Below, one piece after another: positions 18,325-46,319 of a DNA stretch of 64,000 nt (positions within the stretch are counted from its first letter, which is position 1; each line of letters begins with the position of its first letter). Position numbers and translations under genes: made by a program. The notes beneath the pieces are model-generated. The model saw nothing but the letters and a program-made list of their open reading frames with translations. It did no database searches and had not been told where the DNA came from. Source of the stretch: Carpediemonas membranifera BICM (lineage: Eukaryota; Protista; Fornicata); NCBI GenBank assembly GCA_019828565.1, contig JAHDYR010000067.1:402244-466243 (forward strand), written 5' to 3'.

Positions 18325-18361
18325 TTAAACCTCTTTCGCTAGCTGTTCTATCCATACCACA
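18309..18361 (+). repeat. 3' LTR of Gypsy 2 (53 bp)
   Basis: Identical to 13837-13889. Confidence 0.95.
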
Positions 18362-18420
18362 CATGCAGTCAATTCTGGTACCTTTTCTGGAACAAATAGT
18401 TCCAGAATTGGTTCCAGAAT
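18362..18420 (+). repeat. Terminal repeat of element A
   Basis: CATGCAG-N6-CTGGTAC...TTCTGGAAC-N5-GTTCCAGAAT-N2-GTTCCAGAAT; same spacing as the TIRs of B. Confidence 0.7.
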
Positions 18421-19137
18421 GCCAGAAAAAATGGCATTTGCAAGAAAAACTAAACGCGTTCAAACAATTTAGCGACGCCTTGCCATGGGATGTAAAGCAA
18501 TATGCAACTAATACTGGGCCCAAGGAACGTTGATACGTACTGCTCTCATGAACTCACTCACTTTTCAGCAGAGCTCGACCAAAAACTAACAGAGGCTTGC
18601 CCGAGGTGTGCTTAAGCCAGCTCCAACTCTCTCTCAGTCTGTGACAGCTCCCCCAAAAAATTATTCTTGCTCAAAGTTGAGGTTTTCGGGAAATACTGCC
18701 AAAAAGTTTGCTTCTGCTCAAGAACGGGGGATGCGCGTTGGATACCGACACCGTTACGTAACAGTTTAACATTCATTATAACAGCGCTAGCCTCCAGATT
18801 TCCTTGCGCACGCCTTTATCTGGAGAAAATAGCACAAACTTTCGCAAGCAAACGCAAATCGATAGAAAAATATGTTTCATGTCCAACGGAGCTAAAACTG
18901 AGCACAGTGTTATTCATCCTTCTATTCTACTAGTTTATCACTTCAAAAGGATCTGAACTTCAGTATTGATGGTGTTATAGGCACTGGTTCGGTTCGAGTC
19001 AAAACTGACTAAACTGTGACGACGGCTAGGTGTTGAAACATGCCATACTCACTCGTAGCGTGGCGCTTAATAGTGCCAGAATTGCTTCACTGCCACAAAT
19101 CAATGGAGGTTCATGTTTGTGCATAAAGTACACAAAC

Positions 19138-19951: not shown

Positions 19952-20312
19952 GAGTACAGTATTTGAACCCCGAAAACGCCATATTACCAGCACCAATGAG
20001 CTTCATCAACGAAGATGCGCTCACTGGTGCCTGTTATGGCGTTTTCGGGGTTCGTCGATCATTCTGCTCCCAAATCTGCACCTGTATTTTCGTGAGCATG
20101 CCCGGGAGCTGGGCCAGACGAGTGGTGCCACAGGGACTAAGCTCCGCTGCTCAGCCTCTGCCAGGCGACACTCGTCTGAATTCTGCACGAAAAAATTCAG
20201 ACGACGAATGATGGGCAAGGGCCGCGAAAACGCTGAAGTACCAGCGCAAGTAGAGCGGTTTGCAATAAAATAGCTTACTTGCGCTGGTGCTGGCGTTTCG
20301 GGGCCTGAATTG

Positions 20313-22101: not shown

Positions 22102-23489
22102 TTACTTCTGGTGCTTTTCCTGCTCTCTCTTCTCCATCAGGTCGTCATACTCGGCCCTCGTCAGCCTCACAGTTGTCATCCCGGCATCACGGATGTGCTC
22201 AAAGGCCTCAACGGGCAGCTTCGGCATCCCGTCGTCGCTGTCGCTGCTGCTGCCGAAGTCTGACTCGCTCTCGTGATAGCGGCGAAGGCGAATGCGTCTG
22301 CTGGGCTCCCTGGTCTTCATAGAGTCATAGAGCGGAGCGAGCCCACTTCCATTGGTCCCGCTACGGACACCCTCATCGGTATCTCTCTCAGACATATCAC
22401 ACTCAACCTGTTGTGACTGAACAAATGACAGGTTGTCGACGAGGCTATCCTCGGCATCGCTGTCTGAACTCTCCTCATCCTCCCACTCTCCTTCCAGCAT
22501 CTCCAACCCGGCCTCATCGTCAGACTCGCCCTCCACCGCGGTCTCCGGCATCTCTGCCTCGCCAGCTGTCTCGTCAAACAGCGCCTCATCGTCAGACTCC
22601 CCCTCCCCGTGTCGTCCCCCTCGGGCTTACGCTGGTCGTGGAGCTGGACCATCCTAATCCTGAGCTTGTTGTAAAGCCAGTCATCGAGCGTCGGCGGCAC
22701 CAGGTCGGCAGAGCTTCGGATCTCCGGGTTGAGATCGAGGATCGTTGGGCGTCGCGTGGTCGTTAAGTGACTGGACGCCAACTGGCGCCTGAACTGCTCA
22801 TCGGTCAGGCTGATGCGCTTGTCCTTAATGACCTTACGAACCTTGGTCGGATCCCTGGGCCTGCCCGTCCGTCTCTGTGTCTCAATCACCCGCTTCTTGA
22901 GCTGATTGAGATCGACATGCACAGTGGGCGCATAGCGAAGCTGGTTAACACTCAGCCCGACCGACTTGAGAGCCTGCGAGAAGGTGCTAGGCATCACAGC
23001 GGACATCGCGGATGGTGCCCCGGTGAATAGCAACCAGTCAGCGAGTTCCGGGGGAATCTGGAGCTCGCTCACATCAATATCGCGGGCTGATGTGGCAGTC
23101 ATGCCTGTGTGGCTGATGATAAGAGCCAGCGCATTGTAGGGGAAGACTAGTCGGACAATAGCTTCCGATGCGACAGGCTCAAACTGCCCAAGCGGCTTGA
23201 CATTGTCTCTGCCGGAGTTTCGGAATGAGTTGACGGCACTGAGAGTGACAGCAGCGGTTGCCTTGCTCAATGATGCAGCAAAACCGGGCACAAGCGATCT
23301 AACCTCCTCGGACCGGATCACGGAGAGCGCTTCGTCCTCGGTACTCCCTCGCTCACGTTGTACGAATTGAACGAACCGCGAAAGGTTGTTTGCGGCCGCT
23401 TTCCGGGAAGATTTCTTGCTGATGGTGCACAACCAAGCATTCTTCACGTCTTGCATGCTTGTTTCCATCTCCCGCGGGCTTCCTTCCAT
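22102..23489 (-). CDS. Degenerate tyrosine-recombinase-like fold + kleisin-like segment + acidic tail (frameshift ~22605), element A copy
   Basis: SLSKATAAVTLSAVNSF, ALALIISHTGMTATSA, ALKSVGLSVNQLRYA, then KVIKDKRISLTDEQFRRQLASS...LDLNP; homologous to 39825-41066. Acidic ORF 22102-22551 joins across a G-run. Confidence 0.65.
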
Positions 23490-23944
23490 CGATATACGGA
23501 TTTCAGACTTTCGTCATGCACAAAAATTCGAATCTCTCCAAATGCCCAAAACAGTGGTCAAACCGTGTTCAGGGGTACAAAAGAGTGCCATAGGCACGTT
23601 CTTGCATTCAAAATATTCTAGAGGTCGTTCATAAATTCTCAGATGGCCAACAGTACGAAAGTCTGAAATCCATTTATCATGAGACCCGACAAATTTGAAA
23701 TCCATTTATCGGGTGGATACATCACTGTAGAGGGTATTCATGGATATAGGTGCCTTTTCGGTGCCGAGGGGAGTCAACATTTGAGGTCGTGCAGGCAGAA
23801 AGTCTGAAATCCGTTTATCTCACCACTGCTTAGTGTTCTGGCAGACAACGGCTTCCTGGCGACGCCTGGGGTGTAAGGATTCGCTTGCCTCTGTGTTGTC
23901 GCATCAGCTTCGCTGAAAACGGGGGAACTGACCCGCGCATTCGC

Positions 23945-24447
23945 GCACTTTATGCTCGCAACGAGACTGAAATGACGAACTGAAGAATAGGAAGAATACT
24001 GGCGGCTTTAACGATACAGGCATGCACATATCACTAAGAAACATCAGTATGCGGGCGCAGAGCATCATTAAAGCAACAATTATCTCTAAACAACATCAAG
24101 TACCAAAAGTCCATCAGGACGAAACGATATGAACTATAAATGGAGCACAGAGCAGTACAGATGATTTGAGAGTACCAGGCATGGCCAGAATACCGTAATT
24201 ATCGTCCGTTCATCCACGTGACCTCCATCTTGGTCGGTATCCAGAGAACGCCCGTCAGACGCTTGCAACGGAACATTTAGGGGGTGCATCCTAAATGGGT
24301 CCAGATTTGAGGCACCCTTGGTCTGACATGCCATGACCGAGCACTCTAGGGGCCTCCACAGTGCGTCCCGAGGTACGTTAGAGCACCACAGACCTTCCCC
24401 CAAAAGCTGACTCCTGGACCCCTTGGCCGGAGCTCGCCCGAAGCGTG
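23945..24447 (+). repeat. ~500-bp non-coding block shared with 41486-41987
   Basis: Direct repeat, roughly 90% identical by eye, lying between the same divergently oriented gene pair in both elements. Confidence 0.9.
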
Positions 24448-24721: not shown

Positions 24722-24960
24722 ATGGACTTGCTAAAGTGGATTGAGAGCGCTAGCAAGGAACAGTACGATGCGATATTGGCTGCATACACCAAGGCAACCA
24801 CCAATCATGCCAAATGTGCTGTCCTTCGCGCGGTTTTGCTGGATGAACGGAAACTGCTCGATCTAGTCATCAGGAAGCGTTTGTAGTCATAGCAATGCTT
24901 ATATAGGAATCAACCTGAACCATATCACCACGAAATTCCGCCTCACGAAGGACGAGAAGG
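24722..24960 (+). pseudogene. 5' remnant of a homologue of the 42255-43973 gene, interrupted by Gypsy 3
   Basis: MDLLKWIE..AKCAVLRAVLL..YIGINL..ITTKFRLT aligns with MLDLFTWLE..GKCDVLRALLL..YTGVNL..IATFFRLT; two in-frame TAG stops. Confidence 0.8.
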
Positions 24961-25081
24961 TGTCGTGGGTCTTACCCAATATTTACATAGTTGTATTATT
25001 TACATCGTCTTCAGGTTTCTGTCGACACATTTGGTGTCGTCTCTTTTCCCTGTAAAGCTTTCTTGTCCCTAACGGACTACA
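24961..25081 (+). repeat. 5' LTR of Gypsy 3 (121 bp)
   Basis: tgtcgtggg...ggactaca, identical to 30981-31101. Confidence 0.95.
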
Positions 25082-25099
25082 TTTCTAGAAATTCAAGCC

Positions 25100-28000: not shown

Positions 28001-29051
28001 GGCAGTTGACACGATGGGGCCTTTCCCCTCCGTCGACGGCAAGGCTTACATCACAGTCATGATCGACATGTGCAGTCGGTGGACTGAGCTAGTCGCATCT
28101 TCGAGTACCACCGGCGCGGCAGCAGCGGACGCCCTGGTCAACAACTGGATATTGCGTTTCGGGTGCCCTGAGGTTCTCCAATCCGACGGAGGACCAGAGT
28201 TCAAGAACCAACTCTTCAAGCGCATCGCAGATGAGATGGGGTTCAAGATCCATATTACCACGGCTCACCACCCGCAATCCAATGGGATGGTAGAGCGCGC
28301 CAACCAGCAAGTATTACGCATCCTCAAGGCGCGTAAGTTTCAGCTCAGAGGGTCAACCTGGATCGAGAATCTACCTGTCGCCCAGTTCATCGTTAATTCA
28401 TCCCCGCGCACGTCTACACGCCTGTCACCAGCCGAGATAGTTCTCGGGTACGACCTGAGAATACCACAGAACGTGTATGTGACTGATTCTAGTACAGCGA
28501 GCGCGAGTGAGTCTCACAGGGAAGCGGCCGCAGCGGCTGTCCAACTCGCCAGCAGCCGAGTCCAGGCGATGAGAGAGGACGCCCTCGCAAAGGCTACTGC
28601 CTCGAGGAATGAGATTATTAGCAGGTTCGTCCTAGTCAAGTACCCCTCTAGACCACCGAACAAGTTGTCACCTGGATGGAGAGGGCCAATGCGAAGGCTC
28701 GCCGGAGTGAAACAACACGGTGTCGTTGTCGCGTATAAGGTTTTAGACCTAGCTGAGAAGGACAACTCGAAAGCGATCACGGTAGACGCATCGAGAGTTC
28801 GGAAGTTCAATCCCGGCAGGCTGACAGAAGATCAGATCAAAGCACTCGCAGCCACGGCTGACGACGAGTGGGAAGTTGAGCGAATCAGTCGATCTCGAGG
28901 TCGAGGCCCGATGTCCAAGCGGGAATACCTCGTCCATTGGGCTGGGTGCGAAGACGAAGAGGCCACGTGGCAAGACTATTCGTCAGTCAAGGACCTAGAG
29001 GCGCTAGACATATTCCTGAAGTCAGACGAGGCCAAGCGAGCCGGTCTGTAA
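25100..29051 (+). CDS. Gag-Pol polyprotein of Gypsy 3 (frameshift ~27449)
   Basis: Two CCHC knuckles; LLDSGA; YIDD; MTDAS (removing one G restores DASGVGYGAVLLQ); AVDTMGP..SDGG..VERAN; chromodomain WEVERI..YLVHWAG..ATWQ. Confidence 0.92.
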
Positions 29052-29124
29052 ACCTTCAGCAGCTACTCAATCCAAACCTTTATCTCACTCCAAAACACCC
29101 CCGCTGAGAGCACCGTTCGCGTCC

Positions 29125-30330
29125 TCAGACCGGGTACAATAGCGAACTAGCTCGGGATGAGCAGCAAAGAACTTGACCCCCAGCCTGACTATCACGGATT
29201 GCCTCGGTTGCCAGGATAATCGAGCTGTACTCGCGTCGAGCATAGTGCACGAGCAGACGCAGGGAATTCTCATGCAGATGGTGGCCAACGATTGCCTCAA
29301 GCACATACACACGACGTGGCTCGTTATGATCGAGCGCGACGGGCAGGACGTCATTGCTGGGGACATCGAACAGGAAGTTGTCCATCAAAGAGTGGCGCAC
29401 ATGACCGAAACCAGTGGGGGTCCGGATTGCTTCAATGTATTGGCGGCTGAACTCTCGCACGTCAGCAGCGTCTAGGATGCCCTGCGCGTGGCCCACGACC
29501 ATCATGTCATACAGGTCTGGGTCATTACCTAACATTATGGCGCGACGCAGATGAGGGGTCATGACGGTGTAACCACGCCCCGAGAGAAGCTGAATACGCT
29601 CGCGCAAACCCTGATGACAGAGCGTACGCGAGGTCGCGTCGAGGCGGCGGAGGTGCAAAGCCACCAGATCCTGATCGGTGGGATCGCCAGGCCGACCACA
29701 CATAGCCCGAGTGTGGTACTCGCGCGATAGCGCCAGCAACACGAGACCATCGCGACAGATGTCACGCGCAACGGAAGAAGAGTTCTCCGTTGCGGCGAGA
29801 TGCCCATATGAGTTGAGCATCCCGGCGCGGAGCGCCCGCAAGGTACCAGACATGTCTAGAGTGATGTAACTCACGCCCTCTGCGGCAACAGCGGTGATCA
29901 TCTCCTCCAGAGAGAAGAGCGGCGAGACCTCGGTTTCCTCACCCGACCCCGAGTCGCCGTGACCCGTTGGCCGGGATTCATCATCGCTACGAGCGGTCTC
30001 GGCCTCGCACGAGTCACCACGGTTCTCACGTGGAGAGCCAGCATCACCACTCACCGTCTCAGCCTCCTCCGGGCTTTCGTCACCGCCCGGCGTCGGCGAA
30101 CGCACACAAGAAGTGACCGGAGCACTCGTAACGCTCTCAGTAGAGGTGTCCCGGATAGATGTCACGTTTGTAGGAGCAGGTGCGCTGAACAAAGCGTGGT
30201 AGTCGCTGGCTGAGTTGAAAAAACGGGCACGATCGAGATAGCGGTTCAAGAAGCGTTTGAAGGCCTTTCGGGCTTTCTCCTCATCAAATAGCGCCAGCAT
30301 CTGCGTAATCTGCTCACGTACGTCGGACAT
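29125..30330 (-). CDS. Antisense ORF of Gypsy 3 (~400 aa) with a possible divergent C-terminal chromodomain
   Basis: Long open frame between pol and the 3' LTR; YVLEAIVGHHLHENSLRLLVHY resembles the chromo beta-strands. Confidence 0.65.
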   Translation of the reverse strand: MSDVREQITQMLALFDEEKARKAFKRFLNRYLDRARFFNSASDYHALFSAPAPTNVTSIRDTSTESVTSAPVTSCVRSPTPGGDESPEEAETVSGDAGSPRENRGDSCEAETARSDDESRPTGHGDSGSGEETEVSPLFSLEEMITAVAAEGVSYITLDMSGTLRALRAGMLNSYGHLAATENSSSVARDICRDGLVLLALSREYHTRAMCGRPGDPTDQDLVALHLRRLDATSRTLCHQGLRERIQLLSGRGYTVMTPHLRRAIMLGNDPDLYDMMVVGHAQGILDAADVREFSRQYIEAIRTPTGFGHVRHSLMDNFLFDVPSNDVLPVALDHNEPRRVYVLEAIVGHHLHENSLRLLVHYARREYSSIILATEAIRDSQAGGQVLCCSSRASSLLYPV

Positions 30331-30980
30331 TGCTCGTTCGTCACTTCCCGTTTTCACTGAGAAAACAACAACTCGAAAGAAGTAGCAACCAACCTCAATG
30401 GAACTTGAAAGACACTGTTTTACGGCTAATTCAAGCCCGATTGATGTTATTAAGGATGAACGCGGCCTTTTGCAGCCGCGAGAGAGAACGTCGCACCGTC
30501 GAGAGCAAAAAACGCGAGAACTCGCGTTTTCCGCCGAATTGAGGCTTCTAATGACGTTTTTCGATCTCTATGTAATAAGGACGGCGACGTGAAGTACATA
30601 CCAAGAGAAACACAAAGATCATCACAGTGAGCAGTTTTAGGCGCTCATTTGATCTAATCAATATTCAAACGGCCGTTTTACGACCGTGGAGGGGCGGAAT
30701 GCCTCACGTAAGATCATTCTAATTACACAGCGCGCTAACAAGTGGTACCACGATAGGATTTTGAGATCCGCAGATATTTTCCGAATCTTTCAGATTCACC
30801 CCGCCAATTCTGGCTCCCGACTTGAACAAGGCATTCACCCTGTACCCTGCCATGGTACAGAGTCTCGTAGACCAATGAGTGGCATCGGAGGTCTCGGGAC
30901 TGGTCAAGTCCCTCATCGCACATTCGTTCGAGTGGCATACGCCTGAGGCCATGGCCCCTTTGGGGTCCATGGAGGGGCGG

Positions 30981-31101
30981 TGTCGTGGGTCTTACCCAAT
31001 ATTTACATAGTTGTATTATTTACATCGTCTTCAGGTTTCTGTCGACACATTTGGTGTCGTCTCTTTTCCCTGTAAAGCTTTCTTGTCCCTAACGGACTAC
31101 A
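30981..31101 (+). repeat. 3' LTR of Gypsy 3 (121 bp)
   Basis: Identical to 24961-25081. Confidence 0.95.
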
Positions 31102-31162
31102 ACATGCTGCGTTTTCCGGTACTCTAACCGGGACTTAAAGTCCCAGAATCAAGTCCCGGAAT
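31102..31162 (+). repeat. Left TIR of element B
   Basis: acatgctgcgttttccggtactctaaccgggacttaaagtcccagaatcaagtcccggaat; inverted match to 51123-51182. Confidence 0.85.
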
Positions 31163-31615
31163 CCTTGATTGATTTTGATCGATGTCGTCGGATCATCCCC
31201 AAAGTGGGTGACAGTCTTCTACTAGCCTAGTTCTACCTCTGGAAACATTATTAGCGCATGTCGATGTCACAAAAAATATTTATGATCGTTTTCCGTATCG
31301 TCAGTGCAGGATAAGGTCGCATGACTTGGCCAAAGTCGCTCTTCAGAACTCGATCGTCTGACACATACAAACGCTAAAAGTGGTTGGCAAAGATGCATTA
31401 GACCTTGTATATGACGTGTATAGACAAAATTTCGGGTGTTGCACTGTCACCTCTGAGGGGTATCCTCTCAAAAAGTGTTGAAACTCCTACTGTAACATCC
31501 CCTTGCTGTCCTAGCAACGGAATAGTACTTTATTTACTTCAACTTTATCCCATTCGATAAAGAAAAGTCAAATTGTGTGAGCAATCTTCAACCTTAAAGT
31601 GCACATACAGGCATC

Positions 31616-32803
31616 ATGGAAAAGACCCAAAAACGAGAAATCCTGATTGCAATTGCAAAAGAAGTATTCTACTTTCAACGCGATTGTGCTCAAGCCATGC
31701 CTGTTGCGGTTTCAGAGGTGTGCTGGGCTATTCTGCCAGATGATATCCGAGCTCTCTACAAGAAGAAGCAAGCGATGGCTTGTTCTCTTCGTCATGCCCT
31801 TATCCACGCTCTGGATGGACTCGCCCCCTCGTCTTACCAGATCAACACCGAGGGTAAGGTCAAGGGTGTGTTCCTCAAGGACTTCGGCGAGATCAACCTA
31901 TCAAGGCTGCAGGACAACCTGCAGGCAGCATCAGGTACCACTAGCACTGTGGTATGGCAGCCTCCGGTTTCGCGCTACATCAGCATCCCCTTCCAGACCT
32001 ATTCGAAGAAGAAGGACAAGAGGGCTCGGAAACAGTCTCAACCCGCCCCTCAGTCGGTCGTAACTGTTCGTGACAATCTGGCCAGTGAACACAGACAGCG
32101 GGAAGCAGCGCACATCGACCAAGTCGCTTCCCAATTTTCCACATGTGTGGCGCAGGCAACGGCACTTATCCAGACAGGAATGAACCGGCGCCACGCACTC
32201 GACAACTTCACTTATCAGCAGCTACGAAACTCATTGCGCATGTGTTGTGGGGTCTGTCACGATCCGATGAATCTGCTGCTGAAGATTGAGGACGACAACT
32301 CCCTGCAGTGCCAACAATGCGAGAGGTACTTCCATTATAGCTGTGTCAGTGGCTACTTGGAGGAGCGAATGGCATACCCGGCATCTAACAGGGCCGATAA
32401 GCAGAAGATATCCATCTGCGATGACTGTAAGGCAATCAATGGTAACGACGAGTGCTTTCATCGTACACCTCCAACCGAGACCACCCAAGCAGCGGACTGT
32501 GGTAGAAGTATTAAGGATGGACCCAGCATGCTCTGCTACTTTTGTTCCAACTGGTTCTGTCCGGATCATATCGCGGACACCGTTTTTGACACTGGAACTG
32601 ACATGTTGAAGCGTCCTTCTCGTCGTGTTCCGGTGTGCGTGAATTGCTTTCCTCGCATTCAGAGAGGCCAGCGACAGTTCAACGGTGAGTATACCAACGC
32701 TGCCCGCGCTATTACAGAGCCATTGACACTCGCGGATGACGAGGCTCGTGATGATGTCAGTATCCGCGAGGAGGTGAGTGATGAGGAGGATGACCAAGAG
32801 TGA
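31616..32803 (+). CDS. PHD-finger protein with a second Cys/His zinc-binding domain
   Basis: CGVC...LQCQQCERYFHYSCV...ICDDC (C4HC3); CYFCSNWFCPDH...VCVNC. Confidence 0.8.
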   Translation: MEKTQKREILIAIAKEVFYFQRDCAQAMPVAVSEVCWAILPDDIRALYKKKQAMACSLRHALIHALDGLAPSSYQINTEGKVKGVFLKDFGEINLSRLQDNLQAASGTTSTVVWQPPVSRYISIPFQTYSKKKDKRARKQSQPAPQSVVTVRDNLASEHRQREAAHIDQVASQFSTCVAQATALIQTGMNRRHALDNFTYQQLRNSLRMCCGVCHDPMNLLLKIEDDNSLQCQQCERYFHYSCVSGYLEERMAYPASNRADKQKISICDDCKAINGNDECFHRTPPTETTQAADCGRSIKDGPSMLCYFCSNWFCPDHIADTVFDTGTDMLKRPSRRVPVCVNCFPRIQRGQRQFNGEYTNAARAITEPLTLADDEARDDVSIREEVSDEEDDQE

Positions 32804-33123
32804 TAAGTGGAATAAAATGAACGAATGACTGATGCGGCACATTCTGTTTACGCTATACGACGATTTTAGAGAGCGCCAGAGAGGTGCTGCAGGGAGAGAG
32901 CTTGTGCTTGCGTATCCTGAGGGATGCGGGATGGGAGGGGCCGACGTAATTGGCCAATCCACGTTTGTGGATCACCTGGTGTCGTCCATACCGGGCGTCT
33001 CTCCGCCACAGGCTGTGTTGCTGCGCATGGAAAGCAGTGTTAACTGTGTTCTATTGCACGATAGCACGGGGTTATTGACTGATGCGGCACCTACCTTAAA
33101 TTGCTCGTCATCCACAGTTGTGG

Positions 33124-34131
33124 ATGGACCGATATCGCGCTAAGCATCGCCAAGCACCTCTCAAAGGGCAATCATCCGCTCGACAAGATCATCACCTGTT
33201 CATTTCACCATGGAACGATGAGCAGCTCCGCATCCTTGGCGATAATGCGCGAGTTCTTCAGCTGCTCGCCATGATGGTCCCTTGGATGCGGAAGATCTTG
33301 GCCTCGCCTGCATTTAACCCCGGGTGCAAGCCCAATAGCACCGAGAAGGACCTCCTCGGCAAAGAGCTCGAACAGGACGTGGATTCATCAAGAATCCTTC
33401 GTGAGATGTCCAATCGAGCGGCGTACAACAAAGCCCATGCCAAGATCATTCGTGATCTCGTTGAGTACCGGAACCGCGCAGCTCACAATGAGCTTGAGCC
33501 CGACACCCTGCCCAAGGTCCTGGAGCTGGTCGAGAGCTTGGCCCAGGCCTTCTCGGTTCCATTGCACGATAACGTCAGGGCGTTCATCGCGCTGCTTAAG
33601 TCGCCAGTGTCGCTCGTTGCGACAAGTGAACATCATGCTCTGACGAAGAAGGTCAGCATTCTTGAGGATGAGATTGAGAGGCTGCGTAGCGGCGGCCGTA
33701 AGACCATGCTCAGGCTGCCAGGTGTCAGGTCTCAGCCGGAGCCCACCACTTTGGAGCAGGCAACGATGACGACTTCGGACGTCGGAGACCTGGATGAGCC
33801 GAGGCCCAGGCCCGAAGACACGGGCAAGACGCGCGGTACGCTCATGTCCCGCACACTGACTGCTAGCCAGGTGGACCAGCTAGCTATGGCCAGAACGCAT
33901 GACCCCCCGCTTGTCCTGTCAGGACGTTGCATCGTGTGCGGGGGCTCATGCGAGACCTCAGAGTGGGCTTGCCGTCGTACCTCAACGACGACACCCAAAG
34001 ATCCTTGCCGAACGTTGATTCGGAAGGTTAGGACTGGGAATACTCGCGACGTCTCTGTCTACCTCACAGATGAGGCATTTGAGTGGGTCAAACGTCGCGA
34101 TCAGACAGGCAAGAGAGCGAGACAGGAATAA
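33124..34131 (+). CDS. HEPN-like (Swt1-type) domain protein with coiled coil and C-terminal Cys cluster
   Basis: D-x-S-x-ILREM ... IIRDLVEYRNRAAH (R-x4-H) in a helical context; CIVC..C..C..C near the C-terminus. Confidence 0.7.
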   Translation: MDRYRAKHRQAPLKGQSSARQDHHLFISPWNDEQLRILGDNARVLQLLAMMVPWMRKILASPAFNPGCKPNSTEKDLLGKELEQDVDSSRILREMSNRAAYNKAHAKIIRDLVEYRNRAAHNELEPDTLPKVLELVESLAQAFSVPLHDNVRAFIALLKSPVSLVATSEHHALTKKVSILEDEIERLRSGGRKTMLRLPGVRSQPEPTTLEQATMTTSDVGDLDEPRPRPEDTGKTRGTLMSRTLTASQVDQLAMARTHDPPLVLSGRCIVCGGSCETSEWACRRTSTTTPKDPCRTLIRKVRTGNTRDVSVYLTDEAFEWVKRRDQTGKRARQE

Positions 34132-34152
34132 ATGAATGTATATGTGCATGTC

Positions 34153-34525
34153 TGGGCCTCAGCGCTGTCGTTCAGGCCAATCCACGTTTGTGGATCCGTG
34201 CAGTTTATGGCTTATCGACCGGACATCTCCTGAACTGAGCGCCAGGGGGCGGAGGTGGCGTTGGCGTGGGGCGTGGAGGCGCTGGGGGCGGGGGTGGCGT
34301 TGATATTGGGCAATTACATAAAGTGCACGGTGCTTGGAATTTCATTCCAACCTCAAAATGGCGGGAAAGCATTATTGGAAGGAACTAGTGGCAGCTATGC
34401 GGTTCTTTATACTGCAAAAGCAACCAGCTGTCGTCAAAAGCGCGCCATCTACCATCAATAACCAACATCTGCGTTGCACTCCACTGTTCTCGGTCGTTAA
34501 TGCACAAAATCACTAAACAACATCA
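34153..34525 (+). repeat. R module copy 1 (~375-bp dispersed repeat)
   Basis: Starts tgggcctcagcgctg; hairpin ATCCAC-GTTT-GTGGAT; G-rich tract; ends ctaaacaacatca. Confidence 0.95.
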
Positions 34526-34564
34526 GAAAGGAACAAAAGATAGATACTATAGACGTCCGTTTAC

Positions 34565-35293
34565 CTATTCAGCCAGGCGCAGGTACTGACGCGCCGTCTC
34601 TCGGGCAGAAGATATACCATGGAGGGATGCGTTCTGGGCAAGGCGCTTGAACGACACAACGAACAGCGGAAGTCGCTCCCACTCTCCTTGGGCCCAGTAG
34701 TGATGGTCGTACTCGAGTGATAAATATTCGTAGGGGTGAATTGTTCGAACGCACACGAAGAAGAGAAGCGGGAGCAGTTTCGTCTCATCAGCAGCAACAC
34801 GAACAAGAACGTGACCAATGTGGCACTGCACATTGGTCACGACCGGGTTGTCGTTGATGCGATGGACACCGATTGTTTCAGGGTTGGCGCTGACGCAAAA
34901 CTGGGTTCCATCGATGAGGTAGTCGTAGTTACCATTTGACTGGCGCTCATGGATGACCTCACCAGCATAGACACCGACCAGAGAACCGACGTCGATTCGG
35001 TGCGACGAGATGACCCCTTGGCCAACATCGGTGCCCATGAGGGACTTCTGTGGCTCAAGAAGGATCCCATCTGCGGTCTTAGCGATGCCGTTCTCAAGTA
35101 GTTCTTCGCCTGCATGCTCAGAGTCCGCCTTCTTGCCACCTGCACCGAGGAACTGCTCTCTATCCTCCTTAGAGAGCTTTTTCAGAGACATCAATTTCTC
35201 GTAATCATCTAAAGACATTGTAATGTTCTCCTCTTCCTCTGATCCATCTGTAGCAACATGCGGGATCATGATAGTGTGCATTCCTGTTGTCAC
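34565..35293 (-). CDS. SET-domain protein (putative lysine methyltransferase)
   Basis: GQGVISSHRI..G..VGVYAGEVI; HRINDNP..TNV; RTIHPYEYLSLEYDHHYW. Confidence 0.85.
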   Translation of the reverse strand: MTTGMHTIMIPHVATDGSEEEENITMSLDDYEKLMSLKKLSKEDREQFLGAGGKKADSEHAGEELLENGIAKTADGILLEPQKSLMGTDVGQGVISSHRIDVGSLVGVYAGEVIHERQSNGNYDYLIDGTQFCVSANPETIGVHRINDNPVVTNVQCHIGHVLVRVAADETKLLPLLFFVCVRTIHPYEYLSLEYDHHYWAQGEWERLPLFVVSFKRLAQNASLHGISSARETARQYLRLAE

Positions 35294-35950: not shown

Positions 35951-36013
35951 TCAGAGAGAGTGATGTGGTTAAATGGATTGCAAATGAGTCTTTTTAATGT
36001 CTCACCACCTGTT

Positions 36014-36480
36014 TGGGCCTCAGCGCTGTCGTTCAGGCCAATCCACGTTTGTGGATCCGTGCAGTTTATGGCTTATCGACCGGACATCTCCTGAACTGAG
36101 CGCCAGGGGGCGGAGGTGGCGTTGGCGTGGGGCGTGGAGGCGCTGGGGGCGGGGGTGGCGTTGATATTGGGCAATTACATAAAGTGCACGGTGCTTGGAA
36201 TTTCATTCCAACCTCAAAATGGCGGGAAAGCATTATTGGAAGGAACTAGTGGCAGCTATGCGGTTCTTTATACTGCAAAAGCAACCAGCTGTCGTCAAAA
36301 GCGCGCCATCTACCATCAATAACCAACATCTGCGTTGCACTCCACTGTTCTCGGTCGTTAATGCACAAAATCACTAAACAACATCAAAAGGACTGTTCAT
36401 ACGTTATTAAACATTGCTTGCTACTTCTGTTTCATCTTATTGTCGTTTACAGCTGTGTTGTCCTCAACAAATGCCAAGAC
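36014..36480 (+). repeat. R module copy 2 (with 3' extension)
   Basis: Identical core to copy 1; 44-bp upstream leader shared with copies 3 and 5. Confidence 0.95.
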
Positions 36481-36852
36481 AGATCAACGAGGCGTTCGCG
36501 GCTTCCCGTTGAAGACTTGCCATTGCCAGAGAGAGTGCCATGCCTGGCACGTCTCTCTTCTTGTCTGCCGCGTGAAGGAATCGACCAGGCTGGATTCATG
36601 TGCAGCTTATGCAGCAATGGACACTCTGGAGTCAGAACTGCATTTGCAGCAGCTTATTGCTGCTATTGAGCTTACTTGTGGCCCTGTCCCATCAGAAAGA
36701 AACAACAGACAGGCCCGAAAGATCGCCGCGGTCATTTCTGGTGAGTTTGACAGAGCATTCGACCGTTTCTTGCGCGATCTCTTCGCCGACAGCCCGTCTA
36801 TCATGAAGAGCTAGATCTCCTGGCGGAGATTCCCCAAGAGCCCATTGAAGAT

Positions 36853-37785: not shown

Positions 37786-37826
37786 ATGGATTGCAAATGA
37801 GTCTTTTTAATGTCTCACCACCTGTT

Positions 37827-38244
37827 TGGGCCTCAGCGCTGTCGTTCAGGCCAATCCACGTTTGTGGATCCGTGCAGTTTATGGCTTATCGACCGGACAT
37901 CTCCTGAACTGAGCGCCAGGGGGCGGAGGTGGCGTTGGCGTGGGGCGTGGAGGCGCTGGGGGCGGGGGTGGCGTTGATATTGGGCAATTACATAAAGTGC
38001 ACGGTGCTTGGAATTTCATTCCAACCTCAAAATGGCGGGAAAGCATTATTGGAAGGAACTAGTGGCAGCTATGCGGTTCTTTATACTGCAAAAGCAACCA
38101 GCTGTCGTCAAAAGCGCGCCATCTACCATCAATAACCAACATCTGCGTTGCACTCCACTGTTCTCGGTCGTTAATGCACAAAATCACTAAACAACATCAA
38201 AAGGACTGTTCATACGTTATTAAACATTGCTTGCTACTTCTGTT
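37827..38244 (+). repeat. R module copy 3
   Basis: Identical core to copies 1 and 2. Confidence 0.95.
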
Positions 38245-38358
38245 ACATCTCCTTAGGACATTTACTTCTGATTCTGTTTCTGCTCTCTCTTCTCCAGCAC
38301 CTCTGCCATCTCGAGACCTGTCAGCAGCATTGATCTCATTCCTGCATCACAGAAAGTA

Positions 38359-39660
38359 TCAATCTCTTTTCGTCCGCTCAATCATTGCAATAAACTGCCT
38401 GTGCAGTCTTCCGCGCACACCTTTTGCGCACTTATTGGTGCTCACCTGCCTGTATCCCTTGTGGCATGTGTCACAGCTGACGTTCTCGCGTCCATGAAGG
38501 TCTCTACCACACACTATGCAGCGCCGATAGAAGACTTGACCCTCAAACCCTCGCTGACAGCAGTCGGTCAGTCTCTTTCGCTGAGCTGCAGACAGGGTGA
38601 CCTCTTCTGTATCATCTAACAGAAGCGGACTCGGCTTGGCGACGCATTCATGCACGCGCATGATGACCTTGAGCTTGTCAAGACATTCGGCAGCAGTGGG
38701 ACGCTTCGTTGGGTCGAAGTGGAGCATCTGCATTGCCAGGTCGTACAGGCTGAGACAATTAGGTGGCGTGGTGCCGCGAATCGGGAGCTCAGAGTTCACG
38801 TTGACACACTCGAGGCAATCTTTGAAATGTGTCTGTGCCTGAGGTGACAACTGCAACTGCCCACCATAGAATTGGCACCAGTTCAGCAAGCTACCAAGCT
38901 TCAGCATCTTCTTCTTCTTGTTGTCGATCTGCGCCATGTTTGCACCCATGTCAGTCACCTTCGCGGCAAAGGGGGACTTAGAGAGACCGTTAACGAGCAT
39001 CATAATGACAATACCGCAAGAGTAAATGTCCGATGCAGGTGTCACGACATAAGAAGTGACGGAAAGAGCCCCTGCCGTCATGCGCGCGAGCTTGGAGGTG
39101 TCGCGTGCAGCAGGAATCACTGAGCGCGAGACAAGGTACTCGTAGAAAAGCTCTGGGGGCAAATATCCATGGGTGCCGCGATACTCGGATGCGAATCTCA
39201 GTTGTATGGCCCACCTGTCGTCGCCATTAGCCGGCTTCCTCATTGCAGACCCAAAATCAATGAGGTATCCCTTCTGACTCTTGCTGAAGAGGAAGTTGTC
39301 TGGCTTAATATCGCAATGGACAACCCCGTGGTCATGCATGTAGCATACTGCCTGCAGCAGATGCGAAACATAGCGGAACTGCACGCTGGAGTGAGCCTTG
39401 CAGATGCCAGCGAAGGGGGTACAGTTGACCAAAGGAGCCATGAAGGCTGGATCACGGTCGACAAAACCTGTATCGACGACAGGGAGGACATGCGGACTGT
39501 CCTTGAGCGCTAGCAGGGTGGGAACCTCCATATCGTAGTGCTCATCAATCTTGATCACGACCTTCAGCTTGTCAGCTCCAAACTCGTGCAGATATTGTCT
39601 ACTATTACCAGGTAAGGAAGTAAGTCGCTCCAGCTTGTCGCTATCTAGCTCGAACACCAT
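38359..39660 (-). CDS. Ser/Thr protein kinase (non-RD; Cdc7-reminiscent) with C-terminal Cys-rich domain
   Basis: VVIK, HCDIKPDNFLF, LIDFG, GTHGYLPPE, DIYSCG, DPTKRPTAAECL; CIVC...CDTC tail. Confidence 0.9.
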   Translation of the reverse strand: MVFELDSDKLERLTSLPGNSRQYLHEFGADKLKVVIKIDEHYDMEVPTLLALKDSPHVLPVVDTGFVDRDPAFMAPLVNCTPFAGICKAHSSVQFRYVSHLLQAVCYMHDHGVVHCDIKPDNFLFSKSQKGYLIDFGSAMRKPANGDDRWAIQLRFASEYRGTHGYLPPELFYEYLVSRSVIPAARDTSKLARMTAGALSVTSYVVTPASDIYSCGIVIMMLVNGLSKSPFAAKVTDMGANMAQIDNKKKKMLKLGSLLNWCQFYGGQLQLSPQAQTHFKDCLECVNVNSELPIRGTTPPNCLSLYDLAMQMLHFDPTKRPTAAECLDKLKVIMRVHECVAKPSPLLLDDTEEVTLSAAQRKRLTDCCQRGFEGQVFYRRCIVCGRDLHGRENVSCDTCHKGYRQVSTNKCAKGVRGRLHRQFIAMIERTKRD

Positions 39661-39824: not shown

Positions 39825-41066
39825 TCAGATGAAGGAAAAGACGATACTGTCGGCAGTATCGCTCTCTGAGCGCTCCTCATCAATCACATTCTCTTGAATC
39901 TCCCCATCACCATCTCTGCCCGCCACCTCCCCGCCATGCTCGTCGTGGTCGATCTTTGGTTCCTCATCGGCACTCTTGCATAAGTCCACCTCCTCACCAA
40001 AGGCGCCCTCCTCGCTCTCCTCGCGAGCTGGCACCTCGTAGTGCATCCACTCTGCCTGGTAAGCTGGCTCGTCGGACACCGCCTCCTCGTCAGTATCGCC
40101 CTCTCTCTCGCCCTCTGGCATCTCTGTCTCGCGAGTCAGCGAGCCGAACTCCGCCTCCTTGTCAGCCTCGCTCTGCCTCTCTTTCTTCTTAGTATCGTGA
40201 AGCTCGATCATTCTGGCCTTGAGCCTGTTGTAAAGCCAGCCATCGAGCATCGGCGGCACCAGGTCGGCAGAGCTTGTGATCTCCGGGTTGAGATCAAAGA
40301 TCGTCGGGCGCCGCGTGGTCGTTAAGTGACTGGACGCCAACTGGTGCCTGAACTGCTCATCGGTCAGGCTGATGCGCTTGTCCTTAATGACCTTCTGAGG
40401 CTTCTCCTGCGGTCTGCCGCGGCGCTCTAGCGTGCCGATAGACTGCATCCTATCGGTGGACACGTCGATCCGCTGCGCAAAGCGAAGCATGCGAACCGTC
40501 AACCCCTGAACCTTGAGCGCCTCCGATACAGCACTGGCCTGCGGGAATCCCGATTTGAGCGTGCCAAAGCCCATCCAGCTCGGGCACGAGGTAAGGTCTA
40601 TCGCATCGGGGAGATTACCTTGGAGATACGAATACTCCCAGCCCGTCTGGTTGAGCAGAATGGCAATGGCGCCATACGGGCTGGGGAGACTCTCAACTGA
40701 TGCAGGGGACACCTCTTCCTCCTCTTTCCAGGACAACGGCTTCGCAGGGTGTGGCAAGTCGAAGTTCCGGAAAGACTGAACAGCCGAAACGATCCTCTTA
40801 GCCATAGCAGGCGTCTTTGTAGCGAAATAATGCGCCAAATAAGTCGTAACGTTGTCGCTTCGGACAATCTCGATGCCCTTCTGCATTTCAGCGCCTGTTT
40901 CCTGGCAAATGCTGGCCAAAACGTCCTCCAGGTGCTTCTTGTACACACTACGCGTCTTCACTGAAACTCTATCAGACCAGCGCTTAACAATATCGTCGTT
41001 ATTTGCAGCTAGAACCTCCATAACACGAGTTTTCTGTTGGTATTGCAATTTCAGAATTTCGTACAT
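39825..41066 (-). CDS. Degenerate tyrosine-recombinase-like fold + kleisin-like segment + acidic tail, element B copy
   Basis: SVKTRSVYKKHL..VTTYL..TPAMAKRIVSAVQSF; AIAILLNQTGWEYSYL; ALKVQGLTVRMLRFA; KVIKDKRISLTDEQFRHQLASS..FDLNP. Confidence 0.7.
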   Translation of the reverse strand: MYEILKLQYQQKTRVMEVLAANNDDIVKRWSDRVSVKTRSVYKKHLEDVLASICQETGAEMQKGIEIVRSDNVTTYLAHYFATKTPAMAKRIVSAVQSFRNFDLPHPAKPLSWKEEEEVSPASVESLPSPYGAIAILLNQTGWEYSYLQGNLPDAIDLTSCPSWMGFGTLKSGFPQASAVSEALKVQGLTVRMLRFAQRIDVSTDRMQSIGTLERRGRPQEKPQKVIKDKRISLTDEQFRHQLASSHLTTTRRPTIFDLNPEITSSADLVPPMLDGWLYNRLKARMIELHDTKKKERQSEADKEAEFGSLTRETEMPEGEREGDTDEEAVSDEPAYQAEWMHYEVPAREESEEGAFGEEVDLCKSADEEPKIDHDEHGGEVAGRDGDGEIQENVIDEERSESDTADSIVFSFI

Positions 41067-41485
41067 ACAAAATTATCAAATACTTGGATTCGACCTAAAC
41101 TTGGCTCAGATCCGCAATCCTGAGCTGGAGTGGGTTCATGGGAACTTTTTAAAATTTTAAAGTAGTCATGAACATCCAAATTCTAAGACAATCTCCGGTA
41201 CTGGAAGTAATTCTGAAATTGCAATACCAACACAAGTTATATTTCTGAAAACCGAATACACGGTGATACTGTTATCTATTAGCTCCAGTAGGGACCCAGG
41301 CCAGGTTTTGTACACCCTACCCGCTTGCCTCGGAATTCGGACATGCCGAAATTCTGAAATTCGAATACCACCGCCCATTTTTGACGTATGAGATCAGTAT
41401 CCCATGCCAAACCTCAGGACCGCATTCGTGTACCTTTTCCTGCCCTGTATCCATTATATAACCACCCAATTTCCTTTCACAATGT

Positions 41486-41987
41486 GCACTTTATGCTCGC
41501 AACGAGACTGAAATGGCGAACTTAAGAATAGAAAGAATACTGGCAGCTTTAACGTAGTAGGCATGCACATATCACTAAGAAACATCAGTAAGCGAGCGCA
41601 GAGCATCATTAAAGCAACAATAATCCCTAAACAACATCAAGTACCATAAGTCCACCACGTCCATACGATATGAACTATAAATGAACCACTGAGCAGTACA
41701 GATGATTTGAAAGTACCAGGCATGGCCAGAATACCGCAATTATCGTCCGTTGATCCACGTGACCTCCATCTTGGTCGGTATCCAGAGAACCTCCGTCAGA
41801 CGCTTGCAACGGAACATTTAGGGGGAGCATCCTGAATGGGGCCAGATTTGAGGGACCCTTGGTCTGACATGCCATGACCGAGTACTCTAGGGGCCTCCAC
41901 AGTGCGTCCCGAGGTACGTTATAGCACCACAGACCTTCCCCCAAAAGCTGACTCCTGGACCCCTTGGCCGGAGCTCGCCGAAACGTG
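41486..41987 (+). repeat. ~500-bp non-coding block shared with 23945-24447
   Basis: Direct repeat, roughly 90% identical by eye. Confidence 0.9.
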
Positions 41988-42254: not shown

Positions 42255-43973
42255 ATGCTAGACTTGTTCACTTGGCTGGAAGAAGCCACTGAGTTCGAGA
42301 AGAAGGAGCTAATGACCAAGATCAATGCAGCTGCAAGCGCTAAAGGCAAATGCGACGTCCTTCGCGCGCTTTTGCTGCCTAGGCGCGATTTACTCGCTAC
42401 TGTGATCAAGGAACGTACGTTACTGAGCGAAATTGTTTACACAGGTGTTAATCTCAAGCGTATTGCCACGTTCTTCCGCCTCACGCGCCAGGAGACAGAA
42501 GATATGAAGAAGGACCTTAAGGCGCAGTTTATGGCGACGATGAAATTGAATGAGGGTGAAAGGGTCACAGGGGAACACAAGAAAACACTGAAGCAGGTCC
42601 TCGGCGGGGATACCTTCACGCACCTGTACGACGGCGAGGTGGAGAGCGCGCGTATTCGGGTGAAGAAGAGCATTCGTGAGGCTAGAATGAAGACAAACGC
42701 TAGGCTTGAGTGTGAACTCGCGAAGGAGGAGGACGAGGACATCAGGGATTGTACTCGGGTTCAGATGATGAAGCTGGCCGATGAGGAAGACCGAAAGGAG
42801 TTGGAAAAGGAGATGGAATACACGCGCGAGTCCAAGTATGACGTGGTATGGGAGCGAGTGTACGATGAGATCTGCGGTACTCGTCGTGTGCGGGCCCGCA
42901 GGGATAACGCCCCCTGTCCCGGCGAGGATCACGCCGACCACGTGCTTCAGCGCTATCTCTGGGCCGACCAGATCGATACTCAGGCGCTTACTGGCGAGAA
43001 GACGTTGACCACGAGACTCCCTGCTGAAGCTCGAGTCGTACGTCGCGTGACAGCCAGTCTGATCTCTGCTCAGAAGACGGAGATCCAATCTCTCAAGGAG
43101 CAGGTCGAGCGGCTGAAGAAGCAGGTGACTGACGAGAGAAGAGACCACTTTCTTGAGTGCAGGCGTATCCATCATGAGCATGACGTTGGGTACCTTGCTT
43201 CCTGCGATGTTTCGTTCGCCGCCAGCCCCATGCCGCCACAGTCTGGCACGCTCTCCAGGACTTCCTGCCCCCGACGCGCTACGAACGAGCCCGAGGCCTC
43301 CATGTCTGTGAAGCGCAAGGCCCTCTTCATCACGCCCGAGAAGGCCAGGCCTGAGGACTCAGAGGAGGAGACAGAGGAGGAGCAGGAGGAGGCGAAGGAG
43401 AAGAGGGGTGAGGCAGAAGAGGAGACGGTGAACACATGCGACGCCTGCATCCAGACTGAGCCGGAGACTCAGACTCGCATCACCTCTGAGGCCGCGGTGC
43501 AGACGTGCATCAACGCGGAGGCTCTCACGGCTGGCTGTACCGCGATTCATGTCAAGAGTGACGGCAACTGCGTTGCATATTGTCTCCAAGCCATTGAGTT
43601 GGGTGGCCGAGTTGATGGCGACTTCGAAAAGTGGCAGCGTGGCCTCTGCCAGTCAGTGAAGGCCAAGTACTGGTCTAAGAAGAATGTCACGGAGCGTAGC
43701 CTGACAGATCCGGACTCCGGCTACTATAACTCGAACGCCATCCGAGTCTGGGCGAGGAAGCAGAAGCGGAACATCCTTGTTGTCCAGTCATACGACGGAT
43801 ACAACGGCATGCAAGGCATCTCCGCCATCTTATACCTGTTTGATGGCACCACCATGCTTGCACCCGATGCAGACTTGTGGGGGTTGACAGATAATTTCGC
43901 TATTGTCATCGAAGGCGATCCGGCTCACGCCACGCTGTACCAGAAGAAGTGCGAGGTCGTTGAGATTGAATAA
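42255..43973 (+). CDS. Coiled-coil protein with C-terminal OTU-like cysteine protease domain
   Basis: HVKSDGNCVAYCL ... IVIEGDPAHATLY (D-G-N-C ... H arrangement). Confidence 0.75.
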   Translation: MLDLFTWLEEATEFEKKELMTKINAAASAKGKCDVLRALLLPRRDLLATVIKERTLLSEIVYTGVNLKRIATFFRLTRQETEDMKKDLKAQFMATMKLNEGERVTGEHKKTLKQVLGGDTFTHLYDGEVESARIRVKKSIREARMKTNARLECELAKEEDEDIRDCTRVQMMKLADEEDRKELEKEMEYTRESKYDVVWERVYDEICGTRRVRARRDNAPCPGEDHADHVLQRYLWADQIDTQALTGEKTLTTRLPAEARVVRRVTASLISAQKTEIQSLKEQVERLKKQVTDERRDHFLECRRIHHEHDVGYLASCDVSFAASPMPPQSGTLSRTSCPRRATNEPEASMSVKRKALFITPEKARPEDSEEETEEEQEEAKEKRGEAEEETVNTCDACIQTEPETQTRITSEAAVQTCINAEALTAGCTAIHVKSDGNCVAYCLQAIELGGRVDGDFEKWQRGLCQSVKAKYWSKKNVTERSLTDPDSGYYNSNAIRVWARKQKRNILVVQSYDGYNGMQGISAILYLFDGTTMLAPDADLWGLTDNFAIVIEGDPAHATLYQKKCEVVEIE

Positions 43974-44817: not shown

Positions 44818-45290
44818 GCCTCCGTCTTGGCATTTGTTGAGGACAACACAGCTGTAAACGACAATAAGATGAAACAGAAGTAGCAAGCAATGTTTAATAA
44901 CGTATGAACAGTCCTTTTGATGTTGTTTAGTGATTTTGTGCATTAACGACCGAGAACAGTGGAGTGCAACGCAGATGTTGGTTATTGATGGTAGATGGCG
45001 CGCTTTTGACGACAGCTGGTTGCTTTTGCAGTATAAAGAACCGCATAGCTGCCACTAGTTCCTTCCAATAATGCTTTCCCGCCATTTTGAGGTTGGAATG
45101 AAATTCCAAGCACCGTGCACTTTATGTAATTGCCCAATATCAACGCCACCCCCGCCCCCAGCGCCTCCACGCCCCACGCCAACGCCACCTCCGCCCCCTG
45201 GCGCTCAGTTCAGGAGATGTCCGGTCGATAAGCCATAAACTGCACGGATCCACAAACGTGGATTGGCCTGAACGACAGCGCTGAGGCCCA
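44818..45290 (-). repeat. R module copy 4 (inverted)
   Basis: Reverse complement of copies 1-3. Confidence 0.95.
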
Positions 45291-45311
45291 GACATGCACA
45301 TATACATTCAT

Positions 45312-46319
45312 TTATTCCTGTCTCGCTCTCTTGCCTGTCTGATCGCGACGTTTGACCCACTCAAATGCCTCATCTGTGAGGTAGACAGAGACGTCGCGAG
45401 TATTCCCAGTCCTAACCTTCCGAATCAACGTTCGGCAAGGATCTTTGGGTGTCGTCGTTGAGGTACGACGGCAAGCCCACTCTGAGGTCTCGCATGAGCC
45501 CCCGCACACGATGCAACGTCCTGACAGGACAAGCGGGGGGTCATGCGTTCTGGCCATAGCTAGCTGGTCCACCTGGCTAGCAGTCAGTGTGCGGGACATG
45601 AGCGTACCGCGCGTCTTGCCCGTGTCTTCGGGCCTGGGCCTCGGCTCATCCAGGTCTCCGACGTCCGAAGTCGTCATCGTTGCCTGCTCCAAAGTGGTGG
45701 GCTCCGGCTGAGACCTGACACCTGGCAGCCTGAGCATGGTCTTACGGCCGCCGCTACGCAGCCTCTCAATCTCATCCTCAAGAATGCTGACCTTCTTCGT
45801 CAGAGCATGATGTTCACTTGTCGCAACGAGCGACACTGGCGACTTAAGCAGCGCGATGAACGCCCTGACGTTATCGTGCAATGGAACCGAGAAGGCCTGG
45901 GCCAAGCTCTCGACCAGCTCCAGGACCTTGGGCAGGGTGTCGGGCTCAAGCTCATTGTGAGCTGCGCGGTTCCGGTACTCAACGAGATCACGAATGATCT
46001 TGGCATGGGCTTTGTTGTACGCCGCTCGATTGGACATCTCACGAAGGATTCTTGATGAATCCACGTCCTGTTCGAGCTCTTTGCCGAGGAGGTCCTTCTC
46101 GGTGCTATTGGGCTTGCACCCGGGGTTAAATGCAGGCGAGGCCAAGATCTTCCGCATCCAAGGGACCATCATGGCGAGCAGCTGAAGAACTCGCGCATTA
46201 TCGCCAAGGATGCGGAGCTGCTCATCGTTCCATGGTGAAATGAACAGGTGATGATCTTGTCGAGCGGATGATTGCCCTTTGAGAGGTGCTTGGCGATGCT
46301 TAGCGCGATATCGGTCCAT
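45312..46319 (-). CDS. Identical duplicate of the HEPN-like gene
   Basis: Same translation as 33124-34131. Confidence 0.7.
   Translation of the reverse strand: MDRYRAKHRQAPLKGQSSARQDHHLFISPWNDEQLRILGDNARVLQLLAMMVPWMRKILASPAFNPGCKPNSTEKDLLGKELEQDVDSSRILREMSNRAAYNKAHAKIIRDLVEYRNRAAHNELEPDTLPKVLELVESLAQAFSVPLHDNVRAFIALLKSPVSLVATSEHHALTKKVSILEDEIERLRSGGRKTMLRLPGVRSQPEPTTLEQATMTTSDVGDLDEPRPRPEDTGKTRGTLMSRTLTASQVDQLAMARTHDPPLVLSGRCIVCGGSCETSEWACRRTSTTTPKDPCRTLIRKVRTGNTRDVSVYLTDEAFEWVKRRDQTGKRARQE

Follow-up and report, generated by a model that had tools for sequence, protein, structure and literature searches.

What does a mobile element gain from a gene that joins a recombinase-like domain to a piece of the host's own cohesin? 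This question is raised by two related genes, copy A and copy B, in the window, that is the whole stretch of 64,000 nucleotides of Carpediemonas membranifera BICM DNA analysed here. The initial annotation had described both as a catalytically dead, miniaturised tyrosine recombinase fused to a Rad21/kleisin-like segment. Both genes are real, since the open reading frame of copy B and the frameshifted paralog were recovered (Table 1), and the motifs TG[W/M] and GL.V..LR.A are found in both copies. The main reading frame of copy A (22317-23489, minus strand) encodes 390 residues, and another frame carries on to 22102. The frame changes within a run of C at about 22605-22608 that is one base shorter than the intact copies imply, so that the shift may be a homopolymer assembly error. 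Copy B probably starts at Met16 (position 41021) because copy A has an in-frame Met close to its beginning that falls at the same alignment position and because the family member P0003 begins at this residue.

The fusion family consists of 25 C. membranifera proteins, which form nine clusters on 15 contigs (best identity 99%) and are all unnamed or misnamed ('retinal rod') in the databases. Outside C. membranifera, no relative of the fusion was retrieved by a word-based protein search or by a profile search of 1,835,955,588 proteins. Moreover, none of the 159 pattern matches in viral contigs and none of the 596 in metagenome contigs was confirmed as a relative.

Table 1. Features of the two fusion genes and of the elements that carry them (positions in the window)
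Feature	Position	Strand	Remarks
Copy B, fusion gene	39825..41066	-	413-aa ORF with a type B N-terminus and an acidic tail of type beta
Predicted tyrosine-recombinase core-binding (four-helix) domain, copy B	40731..41003	-	aa 22-112; model pLDDT 78-92 over most of it
Putative cut-down catalytic-domain remnant, copy B	40470..40730	-	aa 113-199; weak structural matches, residues assigned by eye
Captured alpha-kleisin middle segment, copy B	40191..40394	-	aa 225-292, homologous to J8273_2889 aa 287-354; Scc3/STAG-binding region
Acidic low-complexity tail, type beta, copy B	39828..40190	-	related to tail alpha
Three 13-mer sites (ATTTCAGAMTTTC) upstream of copy B	41048, 41207, 41348 (within 41048..41360)	+, -, -	spacing 159 and 141
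Copy A, fusion gene	22102..23489	-	N-terminal type A, tail alpha; one-base frameshift near 22605-22608
Kleisin segment, copy A	22632..22835	-	47/68 identical to host J8273_2889
Three 13-mer sites upstream of copy A	23500, 23657, 23798 (within 23500..23810)	+, -, -	spacing 157 and 141
Left TIR, element B	31102..31168		cut by right LTR of a Gypsy element
Right TIR, element B	51117..51186		outer end reads CACTA; interrupts ORF 51157-52008
Left end, element A	18362..18469		73% identical to right TIR of B; abuts Gypsy LTR
782-aa ORF	47600..49948	+	likely DDE transposase; candidate D339, D422, MH at 520-521, E691
Protein-kinase cargo gene	38359..39660	-	Pkinase E 1e-23; directly downstream of copy B

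Copy B is harboured by a stretch of about 20 kb between inverted repeats (element B), and copy A by a truncated sister element that starts near 18362 (element A). The CACTA start of CACTA/CMC terminal inverted repeats is present at the right end of element B, and its left flank has been replaced by a Gypsy element. The 782-aa ORF has no match in Pfam, NCBIfam or PHROG; by eye only, it fits what we take to be the DDE motifs of the CMC/CACTA type. The fusion gene travels with the element, since the accession numbers of the kinase gene and of a 572-aa gene adjoin those of fusion family members at other loci. In being a large element with terminal inverted repeats and host sequence as cargo, element B resembles Pack-MULE-type capture and the giant cargo elements (PMC6431247). 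By comparison with Pack-MULE-type capture, the fragment described here is in frame, sharply bounded and a protein-interaction module; the word 'cohesin' is absent from the text of that review (PMC6431247).

Several further features of the elements may be recorded. Other cargo comprises PHD-like and HEPN-like ORFs, whose matches stay below the cut-off, and a weak SET-like ORF (EHMT1, E 0.13). The cargo in 31616-32803, 34565-35281, 38359-39660 and 42255-43973 points to chromatin and signalling (PHD-like fingers, the weak SET-like domain and the kinase), and one ORF of this set ends in what is presumably an OTU-protease-like motif. An inverted duplication of 1.94 kb (32592-34532 / 44912-46851, 99.9% identical) carries a HEPN-like ORF, and a repeat of 380-550 bp lies between the cargo genes like cassette boundaries (34149-34532, 36010-36483, 37823-38250, 44821-45294, 46900-47454). 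Just past the kinase gene and out of frame with it, a remnant of the end of the alpha tail is found (38256-38353, minus strand, 77% identical). Arrays of two kinds are found in element A (19657-19966; 20300-21056), one with a 14-bp tandem unit and the other CT-rich with 39/25-bp units. Two different Gypsy elements (13837-18361; 24959-31101) end beside CATGC, at nearly the same position of the left terminal inverted repeat. A duplication of CATGC accompanies the first, and the flanks of the second are unmatched; therefore, elements A and B have been joined through Gypsy, either by recombination or by assembly. The window also holds a complete Gypsy element that has a chromodomain and LTRs of 56 bp, and a non-LTR element with endonuclease and reverse transcriptase (4815-9677, 10525-13466), both of them ordinary.

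Where does the kleisin-like segment come from? The initial annotation had proposed a comparison with the host Rad21, and the kleisin origin of the segment is borne out by the host's own proteins. A profile of the first 286 alignment positions of the family, run against the 1,835,955,588 proteins, gave six matches, all from Carpediemonas, of which four are family members or a fragment. The two others are matched over the kleisin segment only: P0026 (aa 279-355, E 2.4e-24), which is J8273_2889, a protein of 578 residues annotated as hypothetical, and P0028 (aa 214-259, E 5e-6), which is annotated as Rad21-like. Over the 68 residues aligned with aa 287-354 of J8273_2889, copy A is identical at 47 and copy B at 45 positions (66-69%), and the local alignment score of 223 compares with 29.4 +/- 4.4 (maximum 48) in 1000 shuffles. 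For P0028, the score is 121 against a shuffle maximum of 58. The host residue is present at 38 of the 49 positions that are invariant in 22 element copies. The homology to the host kleisin is limited to these 68 residues and ends on both sides of the segment.

Both host proteins carry the Rad21_Rec8_N signature (J8273_2889 with E 0.0096, below the cut-off; P0028 with E 1.8e-7) and they align to each other at both ends. Furthermore, a profile of the two matched five of 177,635 PDB sequences, all of them Rad21. This profile aligns the first third of the segment with human RAD21 at about 321-343 and with S. pombe Rad21 up to residue 388, stretches that are not significant alone (i-E 24 and 280). 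RAD21 contacts STAG through residues 321-345 and 356-395, which together make up about 70 residues (PMC7266993), and the helix at 383-392 is required for STAG binding (PMC3709894). The Rad21 string given in the initial annotation agrees with the human RAD21 chain in the HMMER output and with the peptide named in PMC7266993. The last helix of the segment (WLYNRL) resembles the end of the 356-395 peptide by eye only, and no tool aligned the second half of the segment to RAD21 356-395. Single-sequence phmmer searches of the PDB with the whole ORF, the segment or J8273_2889 returned 0 sequences at E <= 10, and a segment-only profile found one chance match and no Rad21 there. Word-based searches likewise missed the host kleisin, and no relative of J8273_2889 was among the 7995 candidates scored.

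Judged by this homology, the 68-residue segment is derived from a host Rad21-type kleisin. The host-to-element direction follows from the segment sitting at its canonical place in two full kleisins; the order of events is not settled by a tree of the segment, built from 18 rows after removal of duplicates and of incomplete rows, in which the host branches are long. The published cohesin table of the organism (PMC8516963, supplement 6 part 5) lists two Rad21-like loci, one STAG, Smc1, Smc3 and Eco1, and neither Pds5 nor Rec8. J8273_2889 was not found in the 10 searched supplements of that paper, and the protein is likely a second alpha-kleisin type of Carpediemonas that is missing from the table and was the donor of the segment. 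Pds5, which had been considered as a partner beside Scc3, is unlikely because none is listed for the species.

The central Scc3/STAG-binding segment, present in the fusion by homology, is what it has in common with the alpha-kleisins Rad21/Scc1 (J8273_2889, the Rad21-like J8273_2448/2470 and human RAD21 321-395). In contrast to these, and as far as domain profiles can tell, the fusion lacks the N-terminal Smc3-binding and the C-terminal Smc1-binding domains, and it is joined to a recombinase fold and present in multiple copies within a mobile element. No Rad21_Rec8_N domain was matched by Pfam in the fusion, in which that region is predicted to fold as a recombinase domain, and no Smc1-binding winged helix was matched by Pfam in either tail. 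The alignment of the two tails to J8273_2889 is not above shuffles (247 and 459 of 1000 shuffles reach the score).

For the N-terminal half, a structure model built from five aligned sequences (pLDDT 65.5, pTM 0.55) was compared with 48,161 chains. The top 11 rows are recombinase core-binding domains (Z 6.5-8.3; the next, unrelated row has 5.9), ten of which superpose on model residues 7-97 with an rmsd of 2.5-4.5, the Z values being middling for a helical bundle. Such domains make up 20 of the first 22 rows, and 13/13 first rows in a repeat comparison; the top rows include Ndc10, SroF and MrpR, which are non-catalytic. In the Foldseek check proposed earlier, Xer recombinases take the first four places, but the best E is only 0.064 (prob 0.82) and none reaches E <= 0.001. 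The named ESM Atlas clusters for the front half are integrases (0.93). No Pfam or NCBIfam recombinase family matched above the cut-off (best Phage_int_SAM_1, E 0.049), and 0 of 33 matches in a viral fold library had E <= 0.001.

The following part of the model (residues 98-184, pLDDT 43-76) matches catalytic cores weakly, with Z 4.4-4.9 (4.7-4.9 for topoisomerase IB); the match to the lambda Int catalytic core, residues 177-315, is likewise weak (Z 4.5, rmsd 3.2, 86 residues aligned). Residue 315 of lambda Int, at which the alignment ends, lies four residues past the second Arg in the usual numbering, which fits R195 here. Tyrosine recombinases use the catalytic tetrad R-H-R-Y. In copy B, the box-I Arg is replaced by E144 and HxxR reads RxxR (192-195), as assigned by eye. 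In the family alignment, also read by eye, the first Arg has become E, K or T and the His has become R or N, while the second Arg is kept. The structural alignments end at model residue 184, and the Tyr region is replaced by a linker and the kleisin segment. Thus, the structural matches of the five-sequence model give moderate support to a tyrosine-recombinase-like fold that would have lost its catalytic residues, as had been proposed.

Such a reuse of the recombinase fold for binding DNA or protein, with loss of catalysis, is also seen in Ndc10/Cbf2 of the budding-yeast CBF3 complex, in MrpR and SroF of SPbeta-like phages and in DUF3504 proteins. Ndc10 and the DUF3504 proteins are described as having lost the catalytic site, and MrpR as a repressor that binds a repeated element in the genome of its own phage, to which the fusion may be likened. 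Compared with these four, the fusion has a shortened catalytic domain whose end is replaced by a host kleisin piece, it is carried by a putative DDE-type element and it lacks a sequence-level match. A separate tyrosine-recombinase-like frame was observed outside the element (53095-53838, plus strand), in which the box-I Arg, HxxR and Tyr motifs are recognisable by eye. It has one in-frame stop (53203-53205) and no Pfam or PDB match, is preceded by a 52-bp inverted repeat (52659-52767) and did not resemble the fusion in a profile comparison (prob 0.2%).

Candidate DNA sites for the recombinase half are found directly upstream of both genes. The core of the 13-mer has six exact matches against 0.05 expected, all in the upstream regions of A and B, the pattern having been derived from the very sequences in which it was counted; with two mismatches allowed, seven matches compare with 2.4 expected. 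The order +,-,- is common to both copies, the spacers being otherwise 45-60% alike, and the first 13-mer is separated by 11 and 27 bases from where the fusion genes are likely to start. The 13-mers could also serve a host transcription factor.

The proposed binding of the segment to Scc3/STAG was assessed by docking, with an animal-like STAG from a metagenome contig as a stand-in partner (one of 120 loci; Pfam STAG, SCD and HEAT_SCC3). A 75-residue segment reached a score of 0.41, compared with 0.11 for the best of three controls, and the runs agree in at least 90% of the contacts, with a partner pLDDT of about 60. The docking mark is reached by 51/78 solved and 2/108 mismatched pairs. However, scores of 0.60 or under comprise only 5/78 solved complexes yet all four passing mismatches, and a low pass is usually wrong, except for a guess that was likely from the outset, as it is here. 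Moreover, the docking may show likeness only because a like complex is already solved. The predicted contact with STAG lends the binding weak support.

What the protein would do can be put together from these parts. We give a slightly better than even chance to the reading that the cargo gene, a dead recombinase fold joined to the Scc3/STAG-binding segment of a host kleisin, encodes a DNA-tethered trap for Scc3. In a first step, the recombinase half would bind the three 13-mers upstream of its own gene. The segment would then bind the host Scc3 (J8273_8643) as a true kleisin does; the host has the partner and the ring genes, with one STAG, Smc1, Smc3 and Eco1 listed (PMC8516963 supplement). 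Because the fusion is devoid of SMC-binding ends and would fill the groove of Scc3 that the host kleisin uses, Scc3 would be kept apart from the ring. Held at the element outside cohesin, it would add its non-specific DNA cradle and may alter, at this place, how cohesin is loaded or released; a turnover of Scc3 on chromosomes has been reported (PMC4175184). The last and weakest step is that the element would be favoured, for instance if the repair of excision gaps were steered or the chromatin state changed. The initial annotation had proposed an adaptor that recruits or decoys cohesin subunits. Recruiting needs care, given the missing SMC ends and the shared groove, and holding Scc3 off the ring is simpler.

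The similarity of the segments between the two copies bears on this reading. As had been noted, 165 of 175 nucleotides (94.3%) are identical between 22661-22835 and 40220-40394, whereas the recombinase halves are diverged (32% protein and 45% DNA identity over 192 aligned codons). The homologous piece exceeds this stretch and comprises 68 codons (40191-40394 in copy B). Where both copies have the same residue, the codon is also the same in 52 of 57 cases within the segment and in 22 of 61 within the recombinase half; pN is 0.089 and pS 0.171 (pN/pS about 0.5), which suggests selection on the segment between A and B that is mild at best. Each N-terminal type (A or B) is found with each tail (alpha or beta), the four pairings comprising 4, 6, 4 and 7 proteins (one reassigned by eye; four more are truncated). 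Because of the near-identical synonymous codons and the four pairings, the segment is a crossover or conversion hub, and the 94% DNA identity is explained mostly by recombination between paralogs. Therefore, this identity alone does not argue for function, as had been supposed. A second homogenised block, 503 bp in length and devoid of long ORFs, shows 93% identity between the two elements (23945-24447 vs 41486-41987). Better evidence for function is the match of the segment edges to the Scc3 footprint and the retention of the whole segment in frame in 22 of the 25 proteins; in P0003, 37 residues of the segment are deleted, and several other copies are truncated.

These data would also fit a kleisin piece that is a mere passenger, captured in frame behind a dead-recombinase self-repressor of a CACTA-like element and kept alike by recombination, with no Scc3 binding in the cell. 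The pN/pS value, the copy that lost half of the segment and the precedent of dead recombinase folds that repress their own element, such as MrpR, fit such a capture. We nevertheless consider it unlikely, since the homology spans the Scc3 footprint and ends at both of its edges, since 22 of 25 proteins retain the whole segment behind two N-terminal types that are only 32% alike, and since there is the docking pass, weak as it is.

Somewhat less probable again is a true cohesin recruiter, in which the held Scc3 would be a landing pad or be passed on to SMC-kleisin rings, so that cohesion would be programmed at sites of the element. If its excision gaps were repaired from the sister chromatid, a cut-and-paste element would gain copies. 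The anatomy that speaks for the trap speaks equally for a recruiter, but the fusion has no SMC-binding ends, its segment and the host kleisin would be rivals for a single groove, and the 13-mers lie at the gene promoter and not at the ends of the element. The Scc3-kleisin pair is a non-specific DNA-binding module that is needed to recruit cohesin to chromatin (PMC6120753). Moreover, a selfish element that recruits cohesin has a precedent in the yeast 2-micron plasmid, whose Rep1/Rep2-STB system likewise combines selfish DNA, repeated sites and own proteins that engage cohesin (PMC2174020). In contrast to the fusion, a single polypeptide that bears the copied cohesin interface, the Rep proteins are not described as kleisin copies in that text, and the plasmid is episomal.

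Alternatively, the protein could be a diffusible decoy that sequesters Scc3 everywhere in the nucleus and impairs cohesion or homolog pairing genome-wide, its DNA binding serving only to autoregulate the dose. With 25 copies facing one listed STAG gene and 13-mers that flank the start codon of the gene like operators, a decoy is conceivable; we regard it as improbable because a global cohesion defect would harm host and element alike and because a fixed fusion to a DNA-binding fold is more simply explained by local action. That the segment is no kleisin but the C-terminal tail of a Crypton/Ndc10-type recombinase, as NDC10_II, DUF3435 and DUF3504 clusters of the ESM Atlas (0.83-0.90 for residues 205-300, with no Rad21 cluster among the named clusters listed) might suggest, is highly improbable: these scores are at lead level only (73-96 of 256 features common), and 66-69% of its residues are those of a full host kleisin, where the segment occupies the canonical position, and it is present in the paralog of this kleisin as well. 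The Crypton reading is outweighed by the direct sequence match to two host kleisins. The Crypton/Ndc10 profiles NDC10_II and DUF3504 had no Pfam match, and the Ndc10 N-domain (Z 7.3) was tied with Xer domains.

In the literature searched, which did not extend to subscription journals, no description of a recombinase-kleisin fusion was found. There is precedent for each ingredient, namely fragment capture, dead recombinases as binders and selfish DNA that uses cohesin. A mobile element would here encode a copy of the binding interface of a cohesin subunit, which amounts to kleisin mimicry by theft. It would also provide a natural test of how Scc3 behaves on DNA when it is tethered there in the absence of an SMC ring, and of the idea that transposons interfere with cohesin so as to direct repair or evade control. 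Tentatively, and with clearly less confidence than for the trap itself, a eukaryotic transposon may have built its own sequence-specific cohesin handle, in which a dead recombinase reads a three-site array and a copied kleisin interface puts Scc3, and so cohesin activity, under the control of the element. Such a handle would parallel Ndc10/CBF3 and the 2-micron STB, in a protist that is reported to be without several canonical replication and segregation complexes. The fusion of a dead recombinase to a host interface shows a possible origin of centromere-type adaptors such as Ndc10.
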